A DNA stretch of 11,829 nt from Candidatus Eiseniibacteriota bacterium (lineage in GTDB: Bacteria > Eisenbacteria > RBG-16-71-46 > JABDJR01 > JAWXBZ01), in the NCBI GenBank assembly GCA_034440375.1, contig JAWXBZ010000208.1, forward strand, positions 1 through 11,829, in the 5' to 3' direction. Shown here piece by piece: positions 1 to 11,768 of the stretch; position 1 is the first letter of the stretch; the number at the start of each line of letters is the position of its first letter. The translations under genes were made by a program, and so were the position numbers. The notes under the pieces were generated by a model. It searched no databases and was not told where the DNA came from. It saw only the letters and a program-made list of their open reading frames with translations.

Positions 1-98
1 GCGACTCAAAAAGAACGAAGAACTGCTTCGGTCTTTCATCCAGGGCACGCCTCTTTCTTTACGCCTGTTATGAGACATTAGTTATGCAGTAGTCAATA
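1..98 (+). mobile_element. Right end of probable IS630-family insertion sequence (transposase C-terminus, terminal region, TA target)
   Basis: Frame 2 from the window edge reads RLKKNEELLRSFIQGTPLSLRLL* (stop 71-73), resembling IS630 transposase C-termini. It is followed by ...TTATGCAGTAGTCAA-TA (TA at 97-98), exactly where the peptidase reading frame becomes plausible. IS630 elements insert at and duplicate TA. The left end is outside the window. Confidence 0.65.
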
Positions 99-1927
99 GT
101 CGGTAAGGCGTTTCCGAACTTTAACCCCGCGGACACGCTCGGCGTTGGCCACAACGGTCAAGTTGTGCGTCTCATGAATTTCGGTCTCGTCTACCGGTTA
201 CGGCTGCCTGCCTCAGGCGATCCTCAGGCCCTCGCGGACGCGCTCAAGCAATTTCCAGAGGTTGTCTATGCGCACCGCAACGGGTCGACGGAAGCATGCG
301 TGGTCGAGCCGAACGACCCACGATTCCAGAATGGCAATCAGTGGAGCCTGCGCAACTATGGTCAGAGCGGAGGCACACCCGGCGAAGACATCCAAGCCGG
401 CGATGCATGGACCAGAAGTACGGGCGCGTCTACGACAATTATCGGCGTCATCGACTACGGAGTCTCCAACACCCACGTTGACTTGTTCGGCAAGGTGACT
501 GGAGACATTGGGCTCACACGCCATCCGAGCCGAATCACGGAACACACGTCGCCGGCATTGCCGCCGCGCGCACAAACACGATGCCAGCGGAAGGCGTCGC
601 AGGTGTTGACTGGAATGCCCTCATCCACTCGCAGCGCATCGACGCGCCGGGAGACGATGCAACCATCGCCGCCATCCAGGATGCTGTCACAGCAGGATCG
701 GACATTCTGAACAACAGCTGGCATATGACCGACAGCGGTGGGGACGCTCGATATTCTGACTCTGTGCGTGCGGCATTCATGAATGCCTACAAGTTGAACC
801 GCGTGGCATGTGTCGCGATGGGCAATGAGGAGGATACGGACCCGGGGGTCACCCAGTATCCGGCTGGATTCGGCCAGGGAATCATCGCGGTGGGCTCCAC
901 GGATCGAAGGGGCGCGATTGCATTCTCTTCAAGTACTGGCCCTCACATCGATGTGGCGGCGCCCGGAGTTGGAATCTGGAGCACAATCCCATACGCAGCC
1001 GGTTCTCCGCCTGCCTACGGGTCTAACAGCGGTACGTCAATGGCGACGCCGCACGTGGCCGGACTTGCCGGCCTACTCCTCGCTCGAAACCCTGCGCTAT
1101 ACAACGACGACATTGAGCAGCTGATTCGACTTTCTGCCACGGACAAGGGAGCCCCTGGATTCGACAACACTTTCGGTATGGGTCGCATTGATGCATACAA
1201 AGCCCTACTCTTCCTCGAGGCGCCCTACGCCCTCCTTCAAGAGGCCGCAACTGGTGGAACCATTCATTCCTCCACGTCCTCGTACTACACCCAGGGCTTT
1301 CTTGCCGGGGCCGGACCAACGGACGGAACATACCTTGCCAAGCGCCACGAAGTTCGCAAAGCCGTGACTTTCTCTAGTGCCTACGCCGAAGTGCCAGAGG
1401 TTTGGGGGCGGGGTGTCGATACTCGAGGGTATTCGACCGACAACCCGAATTGGGGAATGGGATGGTGCGAGCCGGTTCCAGGCACGATTACAGCGTCTGG
1501 GTGCACATTACGGACGTACATCTATGAAGTGAGAAACATCAACGGCACGCCGCTCGGGTGGTATCCGACGACTGCAGGTAATACGGCTTTTGCATGGACC
1601 TCGCTCGGCAGAACCGCGATTTCCCAAGTCGGGAATACACCCGATCCTGTCACGGCGATGTCGGTCCACCCTCACGTTAATCCGGTCACCGGCCCCTGCG
1701 TGTTCAAGGTCAGCATCCCCAGCTCGACAGTCGGCAGCCTCGAAGTGTTCGACGTCCAAGGCCGACGAGTGCGCACTATCAAAAGTGGAGCCTTCGAGGC
1801 GCTCGAACAGGAAATCAGCTGGGATGGACGGAGCCAAGCTGGCACGTTGGTACCACCGGGAACCTATCTATACCGGCTCCGCACCGGCTTAGGCGAGACC
1901 TCCGGTAAGCTCACGGTTGCACGGTAA
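99..1927 (+). pseudogene. S8 (subtilisin-like) serine peptidase with C-terminal FlgD-Ig/T9SS-like domain; 5' interrupted and frameshifted near 510-535
   Basis: The catalytic triad is split over two frames: IGVIDYG (Asp 453-455, frame 3), then HGTHVAG (His 536-538) and GTSMATPHVAG (Ser 1037-1039) in frame 2. Oxyanion motif AMGN is present. The propeptide-like frame 3 is open back to a TAG at 90-92, with no signal peptide. The C-terminus has VFDVQGRRVRT..WDGR..GTYLYRL. Confidence 0.9.
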
Positions 1928-1933
1928 GTCCGC

Positions 1934-2956
1934 ATGCTCCCGCTTCTCGCTCATTCCAGGAGGTTTAGAACAGGCTGCAGGCCACTTGTACCCCTGACGC
2001 GCCAACGATGCTGTGCGGTGGTGCTGGCAGCTCTCATGAGTGTTGTCGGATGTACCGACGATGATGGGAACATGGTCAAGCCACCGACAACAGTCTTTGC
2101 CCCGCATCACGAGGCGCCGGCATGGTCCACCCTGAATCAACTCGCCTACACGGATAATGGTTTTACGTGCGTAGGTGATGACGGGTCGGCGCTTGCTGAT
2201 CCCGACCTAGCCGGGCTATGGGTTTTGGATTTCCCCTCCGGGCAATCCCGCCGCATCCTTCCCTACGGTTTCGATGCGGACTGGACCCAAGACGGAATGC
2301 GGATTGCTTTCGTGCACAATGCTCACATTTACGTTGTCGAGCGAGATGGAACAAACCTTCGCCAACTGACTGACGAGGGTGAGAATGGTTGGCCTCGATG
2401 GGATCCACAAGGCCAGCGGATCTGTTACACCTCAAGCGTGGATGATGCAAACGGAGCACAGCTCGTGTGGGTTATGAACGCCGACGGCTCTGGGATGACC
2501 GACATTAGCAGGCACGGCGTCGGCGAGTGGTTGTATCCAGATTGGTCACCGGACGGCCTTCGGATCATTCACACGCGCTTCGTACCAGGACTTCAGTATT
2601 CAGAACTCTTTACCATGACAGCGTCGGGCGAAGACGCACGGAGGTTAACGACCAATAGTCGAGAGGAGCGCTGGCCGCAGTATTCCCCCGGTGGACTCCT
2701 CGTCGCCTTCAGCGCCAGATCGGAGTCGGGAGGCGGGGTCCAAGTGTGGACGATGAATGCTGATGGCACCGGCGTGGACCAGTTGACTCAGCGAGGCGGA
2801 ATCAACCCAACCTGGTCCCCGGACGGAAGTGAAGTCGCTTACGTTGCCGGCATGTCCGCGACGAACATGGCTTCCGACGGGGTGATATGGACGATAAACG
2901 TGACTACCGGTCTGGAACGACAATTAACGGTCAAGTGGCCGGAGGCATGCCCGTAA
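1934..2956 (+). CDS. TolB-like PD40 beta-propeller protein, probable lipoprotein
   Basis: Repeated PxWSPDG-type motifs (PAWS, WTQDG, PRWDPQG, PDWSPDG, PQYSPGG, PTWSPDG) and MNADG(S/T)G..QLT motifs. Hydrophobic stretch plus lipobox-like VVGC (Cys40). Starts 6 nt after the peptidase stop; the exact start codon is uncertain. Confidence 0.85.
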   Translation: MLPLLAHSRRFRTGCRPLVPLTRQRCCAVVLAALMSVVGCTDDDGNMVKPPTTVFAPHHEAPAWSTLNQLAYTDNGFTCVGDDGSALADPDLAGLWVLDFPSGQSRRILPYGFDADWTQDGMRIAFVHNAHIYVVERDGTNLRQLTDEGENGWPRWDPQGQRICYTSSVDDANGAQLVWVMNADGSGMTDISRHGVGEWLYPDWSPDGLRIIHTRFVPGLQYSELFTMTASGEDARRLTTNSREERWPQYSPGGLLVAFSARSESGGGVQVWTMNADGTGVDQLTQRGGINPTWSPDGSEVAYVAGMSATNMASDGVIWTINVTTGLERQLTVKWPEACP

Positions 2957-3208: not shown

Positions 3209-3367
3209 TAGCTCGGGTCGATTCGCGGGAATCGAGCGGACTGCCGGGGACACAGCAGTACTGACCCATCTCGTGTGACTAGCGATGTTACATCGGAAGT
3301 CGTGCGCCATCACCAAGATACGAGGATAGGTGCTGCCCGGGTTCGAATCCTTGGGCATAGCCCGTGA

Positions 3368-3675
3368 GTGCCGACAACTGTGCCGAGCTCGCCCCGCTAA
3401 TTCATTCCTCGTGCTTCAGTCCAGTTCAGGCTGCTTCAGCTTGTGCCACAAGCCAAACTGGCCGTAATTACGTTTCCTGCAAAAATCTATGACTGTAAAC
3501 GCCGCTGACCACACGACCTAGCTCGAGAGTCGGCTAAGTCTTGAATTCTCGTTCTTGTCGGTCTTGAAAACCGGCGTGGTGAAAGCCACCGTGAGTTCGA
3601 ATCTCACTCCCTCCGCCAGGTTACAGCGTTTTCAGTTTTCGAGAATCCGGGGTGTGCCGCCTACTGTGCCGAGCT
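3368..3675 (+). repeat. 22-bp direct repeats (paired GTGCCG arm-type sites) flanking tRNA fragment 1
   Basis: GTGCCGACAACTGTGCCGAGCT (3368-3389) vs GTGCCGCCTACTGTGCCGAGCT (3654-3675), 20/22 identical. Each contains GTGCCG twice, 12 bp apart. Confidence 0.75.
3558..3618 (+). tRNA. tRNA-Ser(TGA) 3' fragment 1 (att site, not a full gene)
   Basis: Anticodon arm TCGGT-CTTGAAA-ACCGG, long variable arm GTGGT-GAAA-GCCAC, T arm GTGAG-TTCGAAT-CTCAC, then TCCCTCC-G-CCA. No 5' acceptor strand (GGAGGGA) or D arm upstream. Confidence 0.92.
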
Positions 3676-3977
3676 GGTGACGGGATTCGGTGATGCCGGC
3701 GGTGTGGCCGTTGGTGGGAATGGTCCAACCCGCACGGAGCCGACAGGTCGCCGGCGCCTCCCGTGGGCACAGTTTCTTCGCCGCGTCGTCGGGTCTAGCA
3801 CTGGGATGCGCAGTGCCCGATGAGGATTCCACTACGAGCACCAGGCAAGATCACGCGAGGTAACACGTCAGCACGGCCTGAATGCGCGCGAAGGCGACGC
3901 GCACGCGGTCAACTCGAACCCGCGAGCGTCGCTGCAGGCCGTCACCTCGTCGTGCCCGCCCGCTGGTACCCCCCCGA

Positions 3978-6650
3978 TCACTTCTTCAACGTAGCGGGCC
4001 AGTTCTGCACGAGAGTGATGGGCTCCACGCCGCGAGTCTCGATCGCGCGGTTCACGAGGAAGCGCTCCCCGTCGGCCGAAACATCCCAGGCCTGAAGATT
4101 CTGCACACGGGCCCGCGGATCGAAGAGCGGATTCGGGGTCCCCGCCTGGAACATGGGCTCGAGGCGGATGTCCACAGCCACGAGCTTGCGGTCGGCACCC
4201 TGGTAGATGATCTCCCTCCCGCCGCGCGTCCACGCCGGTCGCGAGCCACCGTCGGTGGAGATCTGCCACTTGCCTCCATCGTCGAGGAGCGACTGGACAT
4301 AGATTTCGTCCCGCCCGGACTCGTTGGACGTGTACGCGAGCCAGCGGCCATCGGGTGAGGGAACGGGATGGGTCTCGTTGAAGGGCGTCGACATGAAGAC
4401 CGAGGCCTGCCCGGTCTGCAGATCGAGCCGCAGGATGTCCGAACCCATCTTGGGCGGAAAGGTCACGACCCAGGCCGTCGCTCCGTCGGGCGAGACGGTC
4501 CAGAGGTAGTCCGGATTGGGGCTCCCGTAAACTGGTTCGTCCTTCCCGGTTCCCGAGCTCGACTTGGAATAGACGTCGCTCTTCCCCGCGCGAGAGGACG
4601 AGAAGTAGATCTTCCGGTCGTCGGGCGACCAGAAGGGGGCCCAGTCGCTCTCGGGATCGAAGGTGAGGCGAGTGGAGGTTCCCCGTGCCACGTCCAACAC
4701 CCAAATGTCGCCCTTCGTGGTGCCCGGGTCGGCGATCGCCGCAACCACGCGCGACTCGTCGCGTGAAAACCTCGGCGCCCGATAATCCGCGACGGTCTTG
4801 CTGGCGAGCCCCACGTCCCTTCCGGAACGGTCGATCAGGACGAGTTGGGCCGGCTCGGTGGCGCTGCCGACCTCGAAGGCGAGAAGTCCGTTCCGGGAAA
4901 TGCTGAAGTCCGCCTCAAATCGGGCGCTCCGCTTGACGTTCTCCGCAACCGGCAGAGCCTCCCCGGACAGGCCCTGCGTGCGCGGATCGAACTTCTGCGC
5001 GACCAGCGTTCCGGCTCGCACGAAAAGCAGGTACCCCGTCGCCGGTGAGTACCGCGCCTGCCCGTTCGTGGCGACCACCAGCTTCTTCTGCTTCGAGCCG
5101 AGTTCGCCCGCGAAGACCGCGAAACCCTGGTCGGTCCCCGGGGTCTCGGCAGCGGACTCGACCAGGAACAGGTAGTGCTTCCCGTCGGGCAGGAACTCAG
5201 CATAGCGATGCGAGACCTCGCTGCGAGAGGAATCCAGCGCGGTCTCTGCGACCGGTGTGCCTCCCGTCACCGGCACGCGGTGGAGGGGCATTCCCGTGCC
5301 TGGAGTGAAGAGAATCGTCCCGCCGCTCCCCCACGCGGCTCCGCGCCCGTCGGCCGCGTCGCAGATCGCCTGCGGCGGTCCGCCCGCCGCGTCGATCCTC
5401 CTGAGCTTGCCCAAGGAGAAGAACGCCACTTGGCGGCTGTCGGGTGACCAAACGGGGTGCGTGGCCCGTTCGGTGCCCGGCATCAGCTGCGCGGAGCCGG
5501 TGGAAAACGTCCTGATCCAGAGTGCGGACTTGCCGTCCTGCCCGACTGCGACGAACGCGAGGCGCTGACCGTCTGGCGCCAGCACGGCTGCGCCGAGGCC
5601 GCTATCGAAGCGCAGGTCCTTCGGAGGAAGGACGGACGAATTGATGGCCGGCATCGGCTCGTGCCGCAGCGTCGCGAACGCGAGCGTCATGATCACGGCC
5701 GCCGCCGCCGTGGCGGCGTTCAGCGCCCACGCGGTGCGCAGGCGGAAGCGCCGCCGTGCCGCCAGCGGGGCCGCCTCGCCGGCGCGCGAACCAGCCTCGG
5801 AAATCCAGCGCAGCTGGTTCCCGATGTCGGCTGCGCTCTGCCAGCGGTCATCCGGTTCCTTCTCGAGACAGCGGCGTACCACGTGCTCGAGCGCGGGGGG
5901 CGTGAGCGGTATCAGTTCGCCCATCGGGCGCGGCGTTCCCGACACGATTGCCGCGATCAGCGAGGTCCGCGTGGCCCCTTCGAACGCCCGCTTTCCCGTC
6001 GTCATCTCGTAGAGCAGCGCCCCGAAGGCGAAGATGTCCGTGCGCGCGTCGACTTCGATTCCCTCGAGCTGCTCGGGGGCCATGTACTGGAAGGTCCCGA
6101 GGATCGTCCCTTCCTGGGTCAGTGGCGCCGCCTGCGTCGCCATGGCTGTCAACCCATGCACCGGCGACGCCTCGGGACCGGATCGGGCGAGGCCGAAGTC
6201 CAGGAGCTTGGCCCCCGCCTTGGTGATCATCACGTTGCCGGGCTTGAGGTCCCGGTGGACGATCCCCTGCCGGTGTGCGCGGCCCAGCGCGTCGGCGATC
6301 TGCGCGCCGTAGCGAAGCACCTGCTCCAGCGGAAGCGGACCCTTCTGGAGCCGCTCGGCCAGCGTCTCTCCCTCGATCAGCTCCATCACGAGGAAGTGCG
6401 TGCCGTCCTCGCGGCCGACGTCGAAGAGGGTGCAGATGTTCGGGTGGTTCAGGGAGGAGACGGTCCGCGCCTCACGCTCGAAGCGGGCGCGCAGCTCCTC
6501 GTTGGCGGCAAAGCCGGGCGGGAGTATCTTGATCGCCACGTCGCGCCCGAGTCGCGTGTCGCGCGACCGATAGACTTCCCCCATGCCGCCGGCGCCGAGC
6601 GGGGCGACGATCTCGTAGGGGCCAAGGCGGGTGCCGGGAGTGAGTGGCAT
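3978..6650 (-). CDS. Hanks-type Ser/Thr protein kinase with a hydrophobic segment and C-terminal PD40/TolB-like beta-propellers
   Basis: Kinase motifs LGAGGMGEVY, VAIK, HRDLKPGN, DFGLA and YMAPE. An Ala-rich hydrophobic segment is followed by multiple WSPD/SPDG repeats. 890 aa, intact. Confidence 0.95.
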   Translation of the reverse strand: MPLTPGTRLGPYEIVAPLGAGGMGEVYRSRDTRLGRDVAIKILPPGFAANEELRARFEREARTVSSLNHPNICTLFDVGREDGTHFLVMELIEGETLAERLQKGPLPLEQVLRYGAQIADALGRAHRQGIVHRDLKPGNVMITKAGAKLLDFGLARSGPEASPVHGLTAMATQAAPLTQEGTILGTFQYMAPEQLEGIEVDARTDIFAFGALLYEMTTGKRAFEGATRTSLIAAIVSGTPRPMGELIPLTPPALEHVVRRCLEKEPDDRWQSAADIGNQLRWISEAGSRAGEAAPLAARRRFRLRTAWALNAATAAAAVIMTLAFATLRHEPMPAINSSVLPPKDLRFDSGLGAAVLAPDGQRLAFVAVGQDGKSALWIRTFSTGSAQLMPGTERATHPVWSPDSRQVAFFSLGKLRRIDAAGGPPQAICDAADGRGAAWGSGGTILFTPGTGMPLHRVPVTGGTPVAETALDSSRSEVSHRYAEFLPDGKHYLFLVESAAETPGTDQGFAVFAGELGSKQKKLVVATNGQARYSPATGYLLFVRAGTLVAQKFDPRTQGLSGEALPVAENVKRSARFEADFSISRNGLLAFEVGSATEPAQLVLIDRSGRDVGLASKTVADYRAPRFSRDESRVVAAIADPGTTKGDIWVLDVARGTSTRLTFDPESDWAPFWSPDDRKIYFSSSRAGKSDVYSKSSSGTGKDEPVYGSPNPDYLWTVSPDGATAWVVTFPPKMGSDILRLDLQTGQASVFMSTPFNETHPVPSPDGRWLAYTSNESGRDEIYVQSLLDDGGKWQISTDGGSRPAWTRGGREIIYQGADRKLVAVDIRLEPMFQAGTPNPLFDPRARVQNLQAWDVSADGERFLVNRAIETRGVEPITLVQNWPATLKK

Positions 6651-6686
6651 CCGGGGAACCTACACCAGCTGTGCCTCACGCGTCAG
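6651..6686 (-). promoter_or_regulatory. Candidate sigma70 promoter giving a leaderless kinase mRNA
   Basis: Minus strand reads CTGACG-N18-TAGGTT-CCCCGG-ATG: a TAnnnT hexamer 6 nt before the ATG, with no convincing Shine-Dalgarno. Confidence 0.4.
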
Positions 6687-6823
6687 GCCTGCTGTCACCG
6701 ATCCCGTTGGTCGCCGATTGGTCGCATGTTCAAAGTCCACTCCTGCCCGTGCCTGGTCCCCTTCATAACCACAAGACGAAGTCCCGCCTGTGTGGCTGTC
6801 CACAAGCGGGGCATTGAGTGACA

Positions 6824-6946
6824 CTTCAGCAGCAGGCGCCGGAAAAGCTCTTCCACGACCTGCGGCGTCAACTGTGGTAAATCCCTAAACGCGCCGTTCG
6901 GCGTCATGACTTCGTTGGTCACCAGGGCGTGTCAATGCGGATGCCG
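6824..6946 (-). pseudogene. Relic of IS91-family (HUH/Y2 rolling-circle) transposase
   Basis: Minus frame reads RHPH*HALVTNEVMTPNGAFRDLPQLTPQVVEELFRRLLLK. This matches the IS91-family HPHxHxxVT-G motif and the following segment, with a TGA (6932-6934) at the U position of HUH. Confidence 0.75.
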
Positions 6947-7099
6947 GGTGGCGCAAGATCCGAACGTCTGGATCGAGATCACCTCCCCGGCAGGGCGCGT
7001 TCATGCGGAAGCCGGCCGCCCATGTCCTGCACACGAGGTCGTAGTCTGATACAACGATTTGGCTCGACAGCACTCAAGTGACAGGTATTCGTCCCGGCG

Positions 7100-7158
7100 G
7101 GTCTTGAAAACCGGCGAGCTGAAAGGCTCCGTGAGTTCGAATCTCACCCACTCCGCCA
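7100..7158 (+). tRNA. tRNA-Ser(TGA) 3' fragment 2 (att site)
   Basis: GGT-CTTGAAA-ACCGG, variable arm GAGCT-GAAA-GGCTC, identical T arm, then CCACTCC-G-CCA. The 5' half is absent. Confidence 0.92.
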
Positions 7159-7427
7159 GGTTGCCGGGATTGGTCTATTCCGAAGTGGCAAGGATAAGCA
7201 GACCTGTCTTGCCGACCCGAAGCTGGAGAGCCTTGCGGAACGCTAACCGGCTGGCCGCCGCTCTTTCCGTGCCGCCCCTACCATTCGCGCGGGGACGAAT
7301 CGGCATGAATCCCTTCCCCCCACCCGCGCATCTCATGGCTCCAGCGTGCGACGGGTAAGCCGCAGCCATAGCAACTCTTGTACACCGCCCGAGACCAAAT
7401 CCGTTTCATCAACCTAAGGAGCTCCTC

Positions 7428-7628
7428 ATGTCAAATGAACAGCAGACCTGGCCCGACCTTGCCATTGGCCTCTATGACCGGCTGACCGGCCGCGGTGCCG
7501 AAATCACTTATGAAGCCGTGGACCTCAGCGTTGCCGTGCCGAGCCGCGTGGGCGACACGACGAATCAGACACGGTGGGTGGTCAATGGCACGGTGAAGAT
7601 CCGCGCGAAAGATACCGTCTCCAAGTGA
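7428..7628 (+). CDS. Small hypothetical protein (TWPDLAIGLYDRLTGRGAEITYE motif)
   Basis: Strong RBS AAGGAG at 7416-7421. 66 aa with protein-like composition. The stop overlaps the next start (GTGA). Confidence 0.85.
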   Translation: MSNEQQTWPDLAIGLYDRLTGRGAEITYEAVDLSVAVPSRVGDTTNQTRWVVNGTVKIRAKDTVSK

Positions 7629-8020
7629 CGTTGGCAGCAGGCGGCGCGATAGCGACCACGGGAAGTGTGGAAGAGGGCGGTGCAGGGGCCCGACGTCATT
7701 TGGACGTTCTCGCGGCGGTTCACATCGAGACCCCGGCCGGGCTCATCGAGCTTTCCGGCCGGGGTTCTTCGCTTGTGATCGATCTGCAAAAACCCTCTAC
7801 CCTTCGCGAACTGTGGCGGCCGGTGTGGGCGGCACGCCACTTGATCCCGCGTTTGGCCCATCTCCTCGAATTCGCCGGGCTGGAAGTGGAACTGCGCGTG
7901 GGAAGTCGGCGCATCGCGTCGATCGGCGGGGGACAGCCGATTTCCATGCCGGCGCGGCTCCTCGGGCTGCACGGATGTATCATTTATCCGCGTGCGTTAC
8001 TCCGCTCCCTCGTCGCCTGA
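7625..8020 (+). CDS. Hypothetical protein
   Basis: In-frame GTG at 7625 overlaps the upstream TGA (translational coupling). It ends 15 nt before the next ATG. The start is uncertain. Confidence 0.65.
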   Translation: MTLAAGGAIATTGSVEEGGAGARRHLDVLAAVHIETPAGLIELSGRGSSLVIDLQKPSTLRELWRPVWAARHLIPRLAHLLEFAGLEVELRVGSRRIASIGGGQPISMPARLLGLHGCIIYPRALLRSLVA

Positions 8021-8035
8021 AGCGCTGCCAGTGAC

Positions 8036-9085
8036 ATGAGCTACGCGCGTGCCCGGCTCTGGCTGGGAATAGCAACCGTCGGCACGCTCACCCTGGCCGC
8101 CTCCCTGGCCCTGGTATCTGGACTCCCCGGGCGTCTCCTCGATCACCAGGGCTTTTTATACGACCTGCGCGGACTCGCATTCGTCCTGCTGGGTTACGTG
8201 GCCATCAGCGCGCCCTTCGACTGGATTGGTGGCTTCATCCTGCCCCGTCGCCATGGCCGATCCCACGCGACGGAGGGACGATTCGGCGCGCCGGGCGGGA
8301 TTTTCGGATTTACGGCGCTTTCCATCGGTCTCCTCGCATTTCAGTTTCCCCTGGCCAGGATCGTAGGCGGATTCGGATATCAACGCGGTGGCAAGGACCT
8401 TCCCGGAGCCTCGGTCAATCGCGCGCACGGGCGGGACATTTTGATGGCCGACGCCAGGGATGAAGGCTTCGTCGGCGGCCTGATCGGACTGCCCGGACTT
8501 GAGAGGCTGGTGCTGCCCAAGGCCTGGCTACATGAACTCAAGTCCGATGAATTGGCGATCCAGCTGGCACGGCGCGAGGCGGCACTGGCCACGGGGTCGC
8601 GGCTGCGCGGCGTGATCCTCGCGCTGGCCTGGAACGTGGCCGGCTTCATCCTCTCCGCGCGCCTGACGGGCTCTGATACGGGGACGCTCTCCGGGCTCGT
8701 GACCACGGCGATCGGCTTCACGCTCTGGTCGTTCATCGGGCTGCTCCTGTTGCCCACGCCAAGCCGGGCCGGAGTGTTCGAGGTCGACCATGCCATCGGG
8801 GCGAAGGGCTTCTCTCCCTTTGCTGTGGAACGCCTGCTGCGCATCCTCGACGCCCGGCAGGATGGCGAACCTGATCGACCGGCCGGTGTTGAGATGATCT
8901 TCCATCCCGTGCCCGCCTTGGGCAGCCGCCTCGCGTCGATGCGCCGAGCCAAGGCTGGAAACGGTTGCTGGCACGCGGCGCGAATGGTACTGCCGCTCTC
9001 CTGGGCCGGTCTCGGGTTCCTGTCCCGCGCGGTGCACTGCAATTGTGGCCGCCCGGAACTCTGGGTCCTGCTGCCGGGGGACTGA
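8036..9085 (+). CDS. Multi-pass membrane protein, M48/Ste24-like layout but lacking HEXXH
   Basis: Several hydrophobic segments. RLVLP..LKSDELAIQLARREA sits where M48 has LxxxELxAVxAHE, and IFHPVPALGSRL resembles the M48 HP motif. The C-terminus has SRAVHCNCGRPELW. Confidence 0.8.
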   Translation: MSYARARLWLGIATVGTLTLAASLALVSGLPGRLLDHQGFLYDLRGLAFVLLGYVAISAPFDWIGGFILPRRHGRSHATEGRFGAPGGIFGFTALSIGLLAFQFPLARIVGGFGYQRGGKDLPGASVNRAHGRDILMADARDEGFVGGLIGLPGLERLVLPKAWLHELKSDELAIQLARREAALATGSRLRGVILALAWNVAGFILSARLTGSDTGTLSGLVTTAIGFTLWSFIGLLLLPTPSRAGVFEVDHAIGAKGFSPFAVERLLRILDARQDGEPDRPAGVEMIFHPVPALGSRLASMRRAKAGNGCWHAARMVLPLSWAGLGFLSRAVHCNCGRPELWVLLPGD

Positions 9086-9147
9086 ACGGCCCAACCGGGG
9101 CCATGGATGCCGAAATCCGCTGCGAGGCGTCATTCGCCATTCCCCGC

Positions 9148-10656
9148 TCACAGCTTCTTCAGAAAGGCCGCTGCCTGCCGTTGGACGGTTTGCCGCTCCG
9201 CCTCGTTCAAATGCTTCAGGCCGAGCACGTTCGGCCCCATGCGCGGGTTGGCTCGCAACTGGCGTTCGAACCGCAGCAGGAAATTCCAGTAGAGAAAATT
9301 GAACGGACAGGCGTCATCGCCCGTGCGCGCTTTCGGATCAAAGCGGCAGCCTTTGCAATAGTCGCTCATCCTGTTGATGTAGGCCGCAGAGGCGATGTAA
9401 GGCTTCGTTCCCACCACGCCGCCGTCCGCGCACAGGCCCAGGCCGATGACGTTTGGCGTGACGACCCAATCGTAGGCATCCACGTAGCCATCCAGAAACC
9501 AGTCGTTGACATCCTTCGGCTTGATTCCGGCGATCAGCGCGAAATTGCACAGCACCATCAGCCGTTCGATGTGGTGGCTGTAGCCCGTCTCCAACACGCG
9601 TCCGATTACCTGATGCAGGCAGTTCATCTCCGTTTGTGCCGACCAGAAGAAGTCGGGCAGGGGCTGCTCGGCTTGCCAGTGGTTGCGTTCGTGAAAGCCC
9701 GGCATCATCCGGTGATACCGCCAGTAGACATATTCGCGCCAGCCGATGATCTGCCGGATGAACCCTTCGACCGAATTGATCGGCGCTGCGCCGGCGTGAT
9801 AGGCCGCCTCGGCGCGCCGCACCACCTCCAGCGGTCCAAGCAGCCCGATGTTCATCAGAGGCGAGAGCACGGAGTGAAAAAGGATCGGCTCGCGCGCAGC
9901 CATCGCATCTTCAAACGCGCCGAATTGCGGCAGCCGGTGGACGATGAAATCGTCGAGCGTTTGCAGCGCCTGCTCGCGCGTCACGGCCATCGCAAAGCCG
10001 CGGGTTGAACCCATGCTGCTCTTCGCCTCTCGCTCGACTTTGGCCATCACCTCTGCCGTGATCGCGTCCGGCGCGAATTGGATCGGCGGCATCGGGCGGA
10101 TCTTGCTGTCATAAGGCTTTCGGTTTTCGCGATCAAAGTTCCACTCACCACCGATGGGGTCTCCCGTCGCGTCGAGCAATACGCCGAAATGCCTACGCAT
10201 CGCCCGGTAGAAAAATTCGAGCACTAATTTCCTGCCCGACTTTTCTTCCGGCGCAAACCGCTCACAGAGAAAGTGACCATTGGGAATGATCTCGATCTCC
10301 GCGTCAAGATCGTCTTTAAGTTGATGCTGCCGCTGTCGCGCCTGCCATTCGGCGGCTTCCATCATGTACAATTTCCGGCTTCCCGTTTCGCGCAGGTGCG
10401 CCCGCAATTCGGCGCCGAAAGACGCTCCCTCCCGATAGTCCACGCGCCAGCCCGCACGGCGCAGCGCGTCAGCGTAATGACGCATCGCCGAAAGCATGAG
10501 CGTGGCTTTCTGTTTGTGAGGGGGCCGCTCGTCAAGCTGGTCGGGCGAGTCGATCATCACGACAACCCGCCGCGATTGGTGCGCGGAATCGAGCAGCGGA
10601 TGATCGGGCATCAACTGGTCACCTGGAATCCAGGCTGATTCGAGGGCGTCTTTCAT
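9148..10656 (-). CDS. Cryptochrome/photolyase family protein, FeS-BCP (PhrB/CryB-like bacterial (6-4) photolyase) type
   Basis: Motifs GDQL, HKQK..SAMRHYA, EFFYRAMR, GGEWNFDRENR, FGAFEDAM, LFHSVLSPLMNIGLL, EGFIRQIIGWREY, HHIERLM and KPYIASAAYINRMSDY. Four Fe-S cysteines (MNC, YCKGC, ACPF). ATG at 10656 is preferred over GTG at 10680. Confidence 0.93.
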   Translation of the reverse strand: MKDALESAWIPGDQLMPDHPLLDSAHQSRRVVVMIDSPDQLDERPPHKQKATLMLSAMRHYADALRRAGWRVDYREGASFGAELRAHLRETGSRKLYMMEAAEWQARQRQHQLKDDLDAEIEIIPNGHFLCERFAPEEKSGRKLVLEFFYRAMRRHFGVLLDATGDPIGGEWNFDRENRKPYDSKIRPMPPIQFAPDAITAEVMAKVEREAKSSMGSTRGFAMAVTREQALQTLDDFIVHRLPQFGAFEDAMAAREPILFHSVLSPLMNIGLLGPLEVVRRAEAAYHAGAAPINSVEGFIRQIIGWREYVYWRYHRMMPGFHERNHWQAEQPLPDFFWSAQTEMNCLHQVIGRVLETGYSHHIERLMVLCNFALIAGIKPKDVNDWFLDGYVDAYDWVVTPNVIGLGLCADGGVVGTKPYIASAAYINRMSDYCKGCRFDPKARTGDDACPFNFLYWNFLLRFERQLRANPRMGPNVLGLKHLNEAERQTVQRQAAAFLKKL

Positions 10657-10894
10657 CTGGCCGGGATCGCGGAAGCCCACTCGTCCAGGGGCGCGGCATC
10701 GGGATTTCTAAACCAGGGCTTGGGGCTGTAACTTTCCGGGTTCTTAACCGCCCGGCGCAGGTCCCGGGCGGAACCGCGTACTTTGTCCTGGGGCATGGCG
10801 GTGACCTCTTGGGTGGACGATGCGGCAAGCGCGCGGCGGCCGCTGGACGACCCTGATCTTACGCCCATTGCCCGGTACTCGGCCTGCCGCCCGG

Positions 10895-10955
10895 CCGGTC
10901 TTAAAAACCGGCGAGCCGAGAGGCTCCGTGAGTTCGAATCTCACTCCCTCCGCCA
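10895..10955 (+). tRNA. tRNA-Ser-derived 3' fragment 3 with TAA anticodon variant (att site)
   Basis: CCGGT-CTTAAAA-ACCGG, variable arm GAGCC-GAGA-GGCTC, identical T arm, then TCCCTCC-G-CCA. The 5' half is absent. Confidence 0.9.
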
Positions 10956-11147: not shown

Positions 11148-11187
11148 AACAGTACGACTTTCTAACTCTAGCTCTTTGCTCCCAACT

Positions 11188-11499
11188 ATGAGTGCCGAAA
11201 TGGCCACCAAAGCCCGCATTCGCCGGAAATTTCAGGTCACGATCCCCCAGGAGGTGCGGGAAGCCTACCCTTTGGAAGAGGGTCAGTATGTAAACGTCGA
11301 AGCCACGCCTCGCGGCATCCTCATAACTCAGACTCGAGAAGTGGACGCTGCTCAGACTTGGTTTTGGAGCCCACGCTGGGCTGACATGGAGCGCTCTGCT
11401 GATGAGGACTTCCGTGCCGGCCGGATAACCGAGACGCCATCGGCTGAAGCCGCAATTGCCGCCCTCAAAAGGAAACCAGGCAGTCCGAAGCGGAAATGA
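11188..11499 (+). CDS. AbrB/MazE/SpoVT-family antitoxin
   Basis: KFQVTIPQEVREAYPLEEGQYV..GILI swapped-hairpin motif and C-terminal QTWFWSPRW..ERSADED..GR. The start is ATG 11188 or 11200. Confidence 0.88.
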   Translation: MSAEMATKARIRRKFQVTIPQEVREAYPLEEGQYVNVEATPRGILITQTREVDAAQTWFWSPRWADMERSADEDFRAGRITETPSAEAAIAALKRKPGSPKRK

Positions 11500-11768
11500 A
11501 GGTTGCCTTTTCGCGGACCTTTCACGAGAACTACCAAGTTCTCCCTTCCAGCATCCAGAAACGCGTTGACAAGACCATCCGGTTCTTGGCCTCGAAGCAG
11601 GTGAACAAACCGTTTCACCCCAGTCTACGCGCCAAGCGCATCAAGGGCACAGCGGACATCTGGGAGGCGAGTGTGACCATGAAGTACCGCCTCACGTTTC
11701 AGATTCACGAAGACACCTTATACCTGCGCGTTGTCGGAGATCATGATCCAACACTCAAGAACCCATAA
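11496..11768 (+). CDS. RelE/ParE-superfamily toxin (probable mRNA interferase)
   Basis: ATGA overlap with the antitoxin. 90 aa basic protein with FSRTF..Y..L, HPSLRAKRIKG..IWEASV..YRLTF and VGDHD. Confidence 0.85.
   Translation: MKVAFSRTFHENYQVLPSSIQKRVDKTIRFLASKQVNKPFHPSLRAKRIKGTADIWEASVTMKYRLTFQIHEDTLYLRVVGDHDPTLKNP

Follow-up and report, generated by a model that had tools for sequence, protein, structure and literature searches.

Displaced tRNA-Ser fragments bound the accessory modules of a composite locus, probably built by tandem accretion at a single tRNA gene, in a microbial-mat bacterium

The window analyzed here, a stretch of 11,829 nucleotides that makes up the whole of contig JAWXBZ010000208.1 (C208) of a Candidatus Eiseniibacteriota bacterium, carries three 3' fragments of a tRNA-Ser gene that share one orientation and are separated by unrelated accessory genes. 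We conclude that the window is probably the middle part of a composite island of ~20 kb, which grew by tandem accretion at one tRNA gene and was then eroded to integrase-less remnants resembling cis-mobilizable elements (CIMEs). This conclusion is carried by the fragments themselves and their co-orientation, their origin from different alleles, an integrase pseudogene next to the intact tRNA, a terminal scar that adjoins core-like genes, and visible decay. The genome is a 264-contig, 3.96-Mb metagenome-assembled genome (MAG) with 64% GC from an uncultivated microbial-mat bacterium, and the sequencing runs that contain the window are microbial-mat metagenomes.

Read in the orientation of the window, the first half of the locus runs from core-like genes to the intact tRNA-Ser(UGA), an integrase relic with three unnamed open reading frames (ORFs), an IS630 element, an S8 protease gene with a PD40 gene (the left module), a degenerate scar termed f0, and fragment 1. 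The second half continues with a kinase gene, fragment 2, two ORFs with a photolyase-related gene, fragment 3, a toxin-antitoxin pair with two genes for secreted proteins, fragment 4, an AbiEii-type gene, a terminal scar, and core-like genes again; units 1 to 4 are the segments that follow the four fragments. The parts beyond the window were read from other contigs of the genome and from three loci (L137, L138 and L139) that represent the same population in other assemblies and were found by searching metagenome contigs with the photolyase-related protein.

Four tRNA-Ser fragments derived from different alleles

A repeat search of the window returned a single family (D1) of three direct copies with start-to-start spacings of 3540 and 3797 bp. 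Identities are given relative to the genome's intact tRNA-Ser(UGA), which is 88 nt long and lies on contig C249. Fragment 1 (3559-3618, plus strand) matches tRNA positions 29-88 at 95%, from the anticodon stem to CCA, and its variable arm resembles that of the resident tRNA, whereas fragment 2 (7100-7158, plus strand; positions 30-88 at 85%) and fragment 3 (10895-10955, plus strand; positions 28-88 at 84%) share a second type of variable arm. Fragment 4 lies 3924 bp to the right of fragment 3 in L139, is co-oriented with the others, and is the copy also found on contig C136. Fragments 1-3 measure 59-61 nt, and all four fragments start in the 5' strand of the anticodon stem (tRNA positions 28-30) and end in CCA, so that each is a terminal piece beginning at a crossover subsite known from Islander. 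The ~13 nt past CCA are alike in all copies and behind the intact tRNA gene. A first-pass annotation of the window, made by a model from the sequence alone, had described three co-oriented ~60-bp tRNA-Ser fragments extending from anticodon stem to CCA and units of 3540 and 3797 bp, and both descriptions hold, the latter through the repeat spacing. Its assignment of the fragments to tRNA-Ser(TGA) agrees with their match to tRNA-Ser(UGA), except that the third copy has the anticodon TAA and not TGA.

As ARAGORN predicted 0 tRNA genes in the window and Rfam gave only sub-threshold tRNA-Sec matches, at two of the three copies, these are fragments and not overlooked tRNA genes. When a profile derived from the copies was run against the 3.96-Mb genome, it recovered the three window copies, the one on C136 and the intact tRNA, all at E<=3e-18, along with weaker matches (E between 1e-6 and 0.2), which fell on further Ser tRNAs of C235 and, in one case, on C244. 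With the pattern reversed as a control, 0 matches were returned, and a chance origin of the copies is excluded.

In an alignment of the four fragments and the 3' part of the tRNA, standard pairs are formed in 74 of the 75 cells of 15 stem pairs, three of which are changed on both sides. One T-stem pair is G-C in the resident tRNA and A-U in all four fragments, and two variable-arm pairs are swapped in fragments 2-4. None of 500 shuffles attained the observed paired percentage or covariation score, and shifted registers collapse. Changes that break the logic of a tRNA are few, being limited to fragment 2, with one anticodon-stem mismatch and two changes in the acceptor strand, and to the anticodon of fragment 3. 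Because coordinated double changes keep the stems, unlike the drift expected of dead copies, the pairing pattern indicates that the fragments go back to different functional tRNA-Ser(UGA) alleles, as expected of attP sites carried by elements from different hosts, and did not arise by duplication in place. The compensatory changes that distinguish the scars show directly that a different element was the source of each.

To judge from a pattern scan of species genomes, which matched at least 119 stretches, other bacteria commonly have the sequence type of the fragments in their normal tRNA-Ser(UGA) genes. Among 80 stretches that were fetched, 79 are intact tRNA-Ser(tga) genes and one lies at a contig edge, each with a single match, and no other fragment array is present in these 80. 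None of 200 other genomes of the class matches the pattern, because their tRNA-Ser sequences differ. The one match among viral contigs is an intact tRNA-Ser without an integrase match.

An additional, degenerate scar (f0, ~3290-3390, plus strand) precedes fragment 1 and consists of a T-loop-like 12-mer near 3339-3350 and a 29-nt repeat. This repeat (D2) pairs 3361-3389 in f0 with 3647-3675 on the 3' side of fragment 1 at 83% identity, and the downstream flanks of f0 and fragment 1 match at 20 of 22 positions. The 9-mer GTTCGAATC occurs five times in the 18.9-kb locus of L139, always on the plus strand, at the four fragments and at f0; f0 itself has no match among the genome's own tRNAs. A likeness seen by eye between the flanks of the tRNA and of fragment 1 was dropped, as it was not significant by blastn and only the pair of f0 and fragment 1 matches. 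Across the flanks, the ~13 nt beyond CCA are common, nothing is shared upstream, and no common arm-type sequence was seen.

The array in independent assemblies

All 11,829 bases of the window are present in L139 at 99.992% identity, while L137 covers 6880 bases at 99.956% and L138 covers 5404 bases at 99.981%. L139, which comes from a source contig of 88,663 bases, adds 850 bases to the left and 6212 bases to the right of the window. The order of units is the same in the MAG and the three other assemblies, at 99.96-100% identity, and fragment 2 is bridged with 0 differences by contigs of two further public runs (X2, 6222-8081; X6, 6597-7230). As independent assemblies agree across the fragments and these two runs bridge fragment 2, the tandem array is not an assembly artefact. 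A misassembly at the fragments had been named as a possible refutation of the first-pass annotation, and at the level of contigs, which is the form these data take, the agreement speaks against it.

Short contigs of public runs break within fragments 1 and 3, where foreign tRNA-Ser reads pile up. None of the joints listed for contigs of four runs (X2, X6, X8 and X10; 12 further joints stand outside this list) connects one fragment to another, which is no evidence against mobility, given that contigs drop rare circles and deletions; all listed joints fall in the multi-copy kinase region or in the IS repeat. In the sediment run X10, the kinase, photolyase-related and toxin-antitoxin genes are represented in part by pieces that are 90-99% alike, the stretches left uncovered being uninformative, and one 2025-base contig of that run matches the window at 3791-4019 only.

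Intact tRNA and integrase pseudogene on the left side

The only intact tRNA-Ser(UGA) of the genome lies on C249. About 70 nt after it, on the opposite strand and thus convergent, is a relic corresponding to the C-terminal third of a tyrosine integrase. In tblastn searches, the relic matched residues 252-349 of the genome's 375-aa integrase on contig C13 (E=1e-12; two high-scoring segment pairs (HSPs), 37% and 62% identical) and the integrase of a tRNA-Ser island in the same class (E=8e-10). The PF00589 profile matches the relic over positions 60-143, including a TAA stop, and separately over positions 149-169. The relic is frameshifted, with two active-site blocks in different frames, and the short ORF that holds the last block matches PF00589 at E=0.017. 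Judged by these lesions, the integrase on C249 is a pseudogene.

The connection between C249 and the window runs through an IS630-family element. Its right end occupies window positions 1-98 (plus strand), with a terminal inverted repeat within 69-96 followed by TA at 97-98, a putative target duplication, and its transposase is encoded to the left of the window (L139 17969-18891, minus strand; HTH_33/HTH_32 and DDE_3). The first 98 bases of C249 are the inverted left end of the element, including the start of the transposase ORF. Window positions 69-99 match C249 positions 68-98 at 29 of 31 bases, TA follows each IS end, and a joint between opposite strands at 1/69 was reported in run X2. It appears that the bin assembly broke at the start of the window because the IS630-type element had inserted there. 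Since the IS ends match and are found on C208 and C249 only among the genome's contigs, we infer that C249, one copy of the IS630 element and the window are contiguous, which would place the intact tRNA ~4 kb left of where the window begins and give it the orientation of the fragments. On this placement, an intact tRNA and co-oriented downstream 3' fragments share one replicon, as in the Islander definition, with contiguity resting on the IS ends and not on a read-through.

These results agree with the prediction that an intact tRNA-Ser(TGA) and a tyrosine integrase would lie to the left: the tRNA is on C249, placed there through the IS ends, and the integrase is present as well, albeit now as a pseudogene. 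The window had been said to lack an intact recombinase, and indeed PF00589 has no match in the window or on C136 even at E<=10. A tblastn search of the 18.9-kb locus with seven integrase queries gave only noise (E>=0.25). An ORF at 3632-3841 (minus strand), which by eye had resembled an integrase C-terminus, was rejected, as BLASTP returned no alignment and Pfam nothing at E<=10. The C13 integrase has no tRNA-Ser fragment nearby. Elsewhere in the genome, contig C60, which carries tRNA-Leu(taa), shows a weak PF00589 match at 1659-1796 (E=0.005) that may be another decayed integrase.

Terminal scar on the right side

On the right, L137 and L139 diverge ~1.07 kb after fragment 4. L137 (1-668) enters the end of contig C70, which carries core-like genes (YtxH, DUF948 and LigD), and the first bases on the C70 side are a 10-nt exact match to the end of the tRNA and its flank, which we read as the truncated last scar of the array. 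L139 (1-2085) continues for 2.1 kb with unnamed ORFs that are missing from the genome bin. The divergence lies ~10 nt before the terminal tRNA-like scar. This difference at the distal end could mean that strains have gained or lost a module, or that the end of a contig is chimeric. The LigD neighborhoods of four relatives contain no tRNA, and the empty site is not reconstructable from them. More fragments had been predicted on either side of the window; the right side has fragment 4 and the terminal scar.

Base composition and decay of the units

The segments differ in GC content, from 58.3% in the left module to 67.1% in unit 1 and 63.3%, 62.3% and 59.7% in the units that follow, with flanks at 62.6-63.5%. 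Measured against 3.5-kb windows of the genome, the left module falls below the 1st percentile and unit 1 at or above the 95th. The changes occur at the fragments, giving the locus the appearance of a mosaic. Signs of decay comprise the integrase pseudogene, the IS insertion, the frameshifted S8 gene and the anticodon change in fragment 3. With the degenerate scars counted, the units measure ~0.25, 3.5, 3.8, 3.9 and 1.1 kb, and the similarity of unit sizes on which the first-pass annotation had drawn does not extend to the whole array.

Tandem accretion followed by erosion

The history that we favor can be set out as follows. The attP site of each incoming tyrosine-integrase element would copy the tRNA from the anticodon stem to CCA together with ~13 nt of flank. 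Successive elements would have inserted into the single tRNA-Ser(UGA) gene by recombination in the anticodon region, each insertion rebuilding the tRNA with the 3' half brought by the element and displacing the prior 3' half, along with the older element, downstream. The 3' halves would now mark the joints, each fragment having arrived with the DNA on its right. The rightmost scar would then be the original tRNA end of the host, the right side of the array the oldest, and the youngest element the one whose integrase relic adjoins the tRNA. Deletions would have removed the integrases and most other element genes, leaving modules of 1-4 kb with intact accessory genes between att scars. We infer both this order of arrival and the former presence of an integrase in each unit.

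This history corresponds to published descriptions. The Islander study reports an anticodon-centered attP subsite for 2083 of 3919 islands (PMC4383910), tandem integration with partial tRNAs and fragmented integrases is described in the tycheposon preprint (10.1101/2020.12.28.424599), and the decay of integrative elements to att-flanked CIMEs is described in a further paper (PMC5704250).

Several observations weigh against this history. The contiguity of C249 and the window depends on matching IS ends, with ~75-105 nt of the IS unread. Neither units 1-4 nor the left module yielded an integrase relic, and an own integrase for each unit is thus assumed; the ORF directly after fragment 1, in particular, does not align to the integrase relic. 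Three units are similar in size (3.5-3.9 kb), which simple decay would not predict. Finally, four units are integrase-free and yet have near-pristine 60-nt sites and intact cargo, a combination that also fits elements that never had an integrase.

Comparison with known systems

The locus resembles the tDNA islands of Islander and TIGER in that, as described in the Islander paper (PMC4383910), the tRNA is regenerated, displaced co-oriented 3' fragments mark the ends, the crossover lies in the anticodon and older elements are pushed outward. No Pfam domain overlaps a fragment, and the unit lengths of 3540, 3797 and 3924 bp lie within the Islander range of 2-200 kb. It differs in that each member of an Islander array must keep its own integrase, whereas only a pseudogene next to the tRNA is present here. 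Arrays of three or more numbered only four among 3919 islands in that study (PMC4383910), compared with at least four full fragments and two degenerate scars within ~20 kb at this locus.

CIMEs, as characterized in PMC5704250, are alike in having lost integration and transfer genes while keeping attL- and attR-type sites, and in having been built up in tandem, with deletions, at a target gene's 3' end. Units 1-3 likewise have a fragment on both sides and no matches to integration or transfer genes. CIMEs were, however, defined in streptococci beside related live integrative and conjugative elements, with mobilization shown experimentally, whereas no live partner element is seen at this locus. 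The accretion and mobilization of CIMEs were reportedly covered by Pavlovic in 2004 and Bellanger in 2011, as cited in PMC5704250.

The tycheposon islands of Prochlorococcus also use a tRNA site and, according to the preprint, contain older remnants with fragmented integrases and scattered partial tRNAs (10.1101/2020.12.28.424599), and tRNA-Ser(TGA) appears as a label in one of its figure legends (10.1101/2020.12.28.424599). The host here is a high-GC mat bacterium and not a streamlined cyanobacterium, and no recombinase, helicase or primase domain, the hallmark of tycheposons, was found in the scanned ORFs (the window, the tRNA-proximal ~4 kb of C249, C136 and the ends of L139).

Integrons are alike in picture only, with short units that lack a recombinase, unrelated cargo and a recurring recombination site. 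The sites here are tRNA 3' halves instead of attC hairpins, and a unit carries between one and five genes, which lie on either strand and presumably have expression signals of their own. No integron head, with an IntI-type integrase and an attI, is apparent next to the array, as PF00589 matches neither the window nor C136, tblastn found none in the L139 locus, and the sole relic nearby is of the tRNA-island type of integrase; no attC-like site was seen at the units, a result obtained without a model specific to attC.

Accretion in tandem, decay to remnants between att sites and islands studded with partial tRNAs are already known. The locus is a clean and fully bounded case, from the tRNA to core-like genes, of one tRNA gene gathering small accessory modules, among them a relative of UV-repair-type photolyases, a kinase, toxin-antitoxin and abortive-infection genes, and secreted proteins. 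If the units were still mobile, the locus would be a cassette array built on tRNA half-sites, through which a mat population would shuffle small modules without a recombinase in each. Such mobility would make the locus matter more and would still be a variant of the known mobilization of att-flanked remnants in cis or in trans.

Ser-tRNA genes as integration sites in relatives

The corresponding regions of five genomes (G002, G003, G014, G032 and G037) were examined, of which G003 and G014 contain true fragments; several other partial tRNA-Ser matches in relatives were discarded as other intact Ser tRNAs. In G014, of the same class, two co-oriented fragments that begin at the same tRNA position lie downstream of a tRNA-Ser(CGA), at distances of 4.8 and ~65 kb. 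The 4.8-kb fragment is preceded by a 164-aa integrase relic, and the ~65-kb fragment by an intact 339-aa integrase. In G003, of the same order (L222 16340-17463), a 103-bp unit whose end is formed by the last 19 nt of the tRNA is repeated in tandem 3.2 times behind tRNA-Ser(UGA), followed 0.9 kb downstream of the tRNA by a 57-nt fragment from anticodon to CCA and then by the same 103-bp repeat unit again; the fetched region contains no integrase nearby. Displaced fragments in both genomes show that Ser-tRNA genes of this group have served as integration sites more than once, and the loss of integrases occurs there as well.

Two further features of G014 were noted. In the two regions concerned (L223 2393-7254 and L224 15544-16643), both fragments are preceded by a twice-repeated short motif and an integrase that ends ~20 nt before the fragment. 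Its integrases are on the attR side and co-oriented, whereas the C249 relic stands beside the tRNA and is convergent.

Alternative explanations

The first-pass annotation had left two readings standing, a stack of eroded islands produced by repeated integration in the anticodon loop and an integron-like cassette system served in trans. The former is supported by the tRNA and integrase pseudogene on the left and by the further fragment and scar on the right, while the latter finds no support in the mixed strands, the shared flank of only ~13 nt, the same array across assemblies and the decay of the locus.

A broader version of the second reading holds that the integrase-less units are still mobile cassettes or CIME-like modules, whose neighboring half-sites are recombined in trans, with the C13 integrase as the candidate enzyme, or in cis by an incoming element. 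In its favor are the preservation of the sites, with 84-95% identity to the tRNA and pairing in 74 of 75 stem cells, four units without a detected integrase relic, cargo genes that are mostly intact and three units of 3.5-3.9 kb. The C13 integrase is itself intact and of the same family as the relic (the HSPs at 37% and 62%, E=1e-12), and L137 and L139 disagree at the far end of the array, no more than ~10 nt from the terminal scar. Cis-mobilization of att-flanked remnants is moreover documented in streptococci (PMC5704250). We nevertheless consider this explanation unlikely. The order of units is the same at 99.96-100% identity in the MAG and three other assemblies, and the mixed orientation of the genes leaves no common expression logic. 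The flanks share ~13 nt after CCA and nothing upstream, so that no shared arm sites are visible, and the fragments are without the 5' half of the tRNA, from which the left half of a normal attB would be made. Near the C13 integrase there is no tRNA-Ser fragment, the locus is decaying, including the integrase that adjoins the live tRNA, and where relatives have a homologue of the photolyase-related gene (6 of 40), it stands at another place that has no such boundaries.

An origin in place, by segmental duplication of the tRNA 3' half and its flank through slippage or unequal crossing-over, with unrelated DNA inserted between the copies afterwards, has a parallel in G003, where the 103-bp tandem repeats end in the last 19 nt of the tRNA and the 57-nt fragment stands 0.9 kb on with no integrase nearby. 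At the present locus we regard it as highly improbable. The T-stem pair is A-U in all four fragments and G-C in the resident tRNA, and three fragments have a different variable arm with two compensatory swaps, double changes that copies of the resident gene would not show. The adjoining integrase relic and the GC jumps at the fragments likewise speak against it.

Even less credible is the suggestion that the fragments are kept as working RNA elements, serving as tRNA-like processing or termination signals for neighboring genes. The anticodon, variable and T arms remain paired, but without a 5' acceptor strand and a D arm no complete tRNA fold can form, and the neighboring genes point both ways relative to the fragments. 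The unpaired and acceptor changes of fragment 2 and the anticodon change of fragment 3 fit neutral drift, and the differences that keep the stems are explained by an origin from working tRNAs. An assembly or binning artefact, in which chimeric joins formed at a repeat shared with the tRNA genes of other organisms, could explain why public-run contigs break inside fragments 1 and 3 where foreign tRNA-Ser reads pile up, but with the MAG contig and three separately assembled contigs agreeing at 99.96-100% across the fragments and two further runs bridging fragment 2 without differences, its probability is next to nil.

Cargo of the left module and units

The accessory genes, of which a unit holds one to five, are encoded on both strands, and library scans of the ORFs in units 1-3 gave no integrase, relaxase or conjugation matches. 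The kinase and the photolyase plus operon, which had been named as cargo from the sequence alone, correspond to a kinase with PD40 repeats and to a PF04244 protein accompanied by unnamed ORFs.

The left module begins ~65 nt downstream of the IS630-family element with a gene for an S8 subtilase with a FlgD_ig/T9SS-type C-terminal domain (165-1927, plus strand), in which PF00082 matches from profile position 73 on the ORF at 581-1927. The gene is frameshifted, the Asp motif being in the frame of the ORF at 165-710 and the His motif in that of the ORF at 581-1927. Because L139, an independent assembly, carries the identical sequence, it is probably a real pseudogene. It is followed by a gene for a PD40/TolB-like beta-propeller protein (1934-2956, plus strand; Pfam PD40 at 2.8e-16, with the NCBIfam TolB-propeller model below cut-off).

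Unit 1 encodes an 890-aa Ser/Thr kinase with C-terminal PD40 repeats (3978-6650, minus strand; Pkinase 1.3e-45, PD40 7e-29). Paralogues are present on at least 36 other contigs of the genome, and many copies, often in tandem, occur in relatives of the class. PADLOC models of the PD-T4-6 kinase match this protein, which, given the number of paralogues, is taken as generic kinase similarity and does not count as evidence for defense.

Unit 2 contains two unnamed ORFs on the plus strand (7574-8020, 148 aa; 8036-9085, 349 aa), both unique in the genome and both without a match in Pfam, NCBIfam, PHROGs or PADLOC. Compared with PF01435 clusters, the 349-aa ORF has an Atlas feature score of 0.96 from language-model features and a TM score of 0.73 from predicted structure, and as a lead it may be a distant M48-type (Ste24/HtpX-like) peptidase. 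As to affiliation, Atlas neighbors from Acidobacteriota, Gemmatimonadota and Planctomycetota are likewise no more than leads. The remaining gene of the unit encodes the 510-aa photolyase-related protein of family PF04244 (DPRP), which is single-copy in the genome (9148-10680, minus strand; Pfam 3.6e-62). Its homologues in 6 of 40 relatives are 38-49% identical and never lie at the tRNA-Ser(UGA) locus of those genomes. When the 13 other ORFs of the window were compared with 77 other DPRP loci, nothing matched besides the query gene. The finding of the same cargo contiguous or elsewhere in relatives, without the fragment boundaries, had been proposed as a check on the first-pass annotation; the photolyase-related homologues do lie elsewhere.

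Unit 3 opens with a toxin-antitoxin pair that is unique in the genome, composed of an AbrB/MazE-type antitoxin (11176-11499, plus strand; Pfam MazE_antitoxin 4.4e-7) and a RelE/ParE-type toxin (11496-11768, plus strand; TIGR02385 at 1.5e-4, below cut-off, and a RelE-like PHROG at 1e-6). Beyond the window, in L139, the unit continues with genes for two secreted FlgD_ig proteins and ends at fragment 4, after which the AbiEii-type gene follows.

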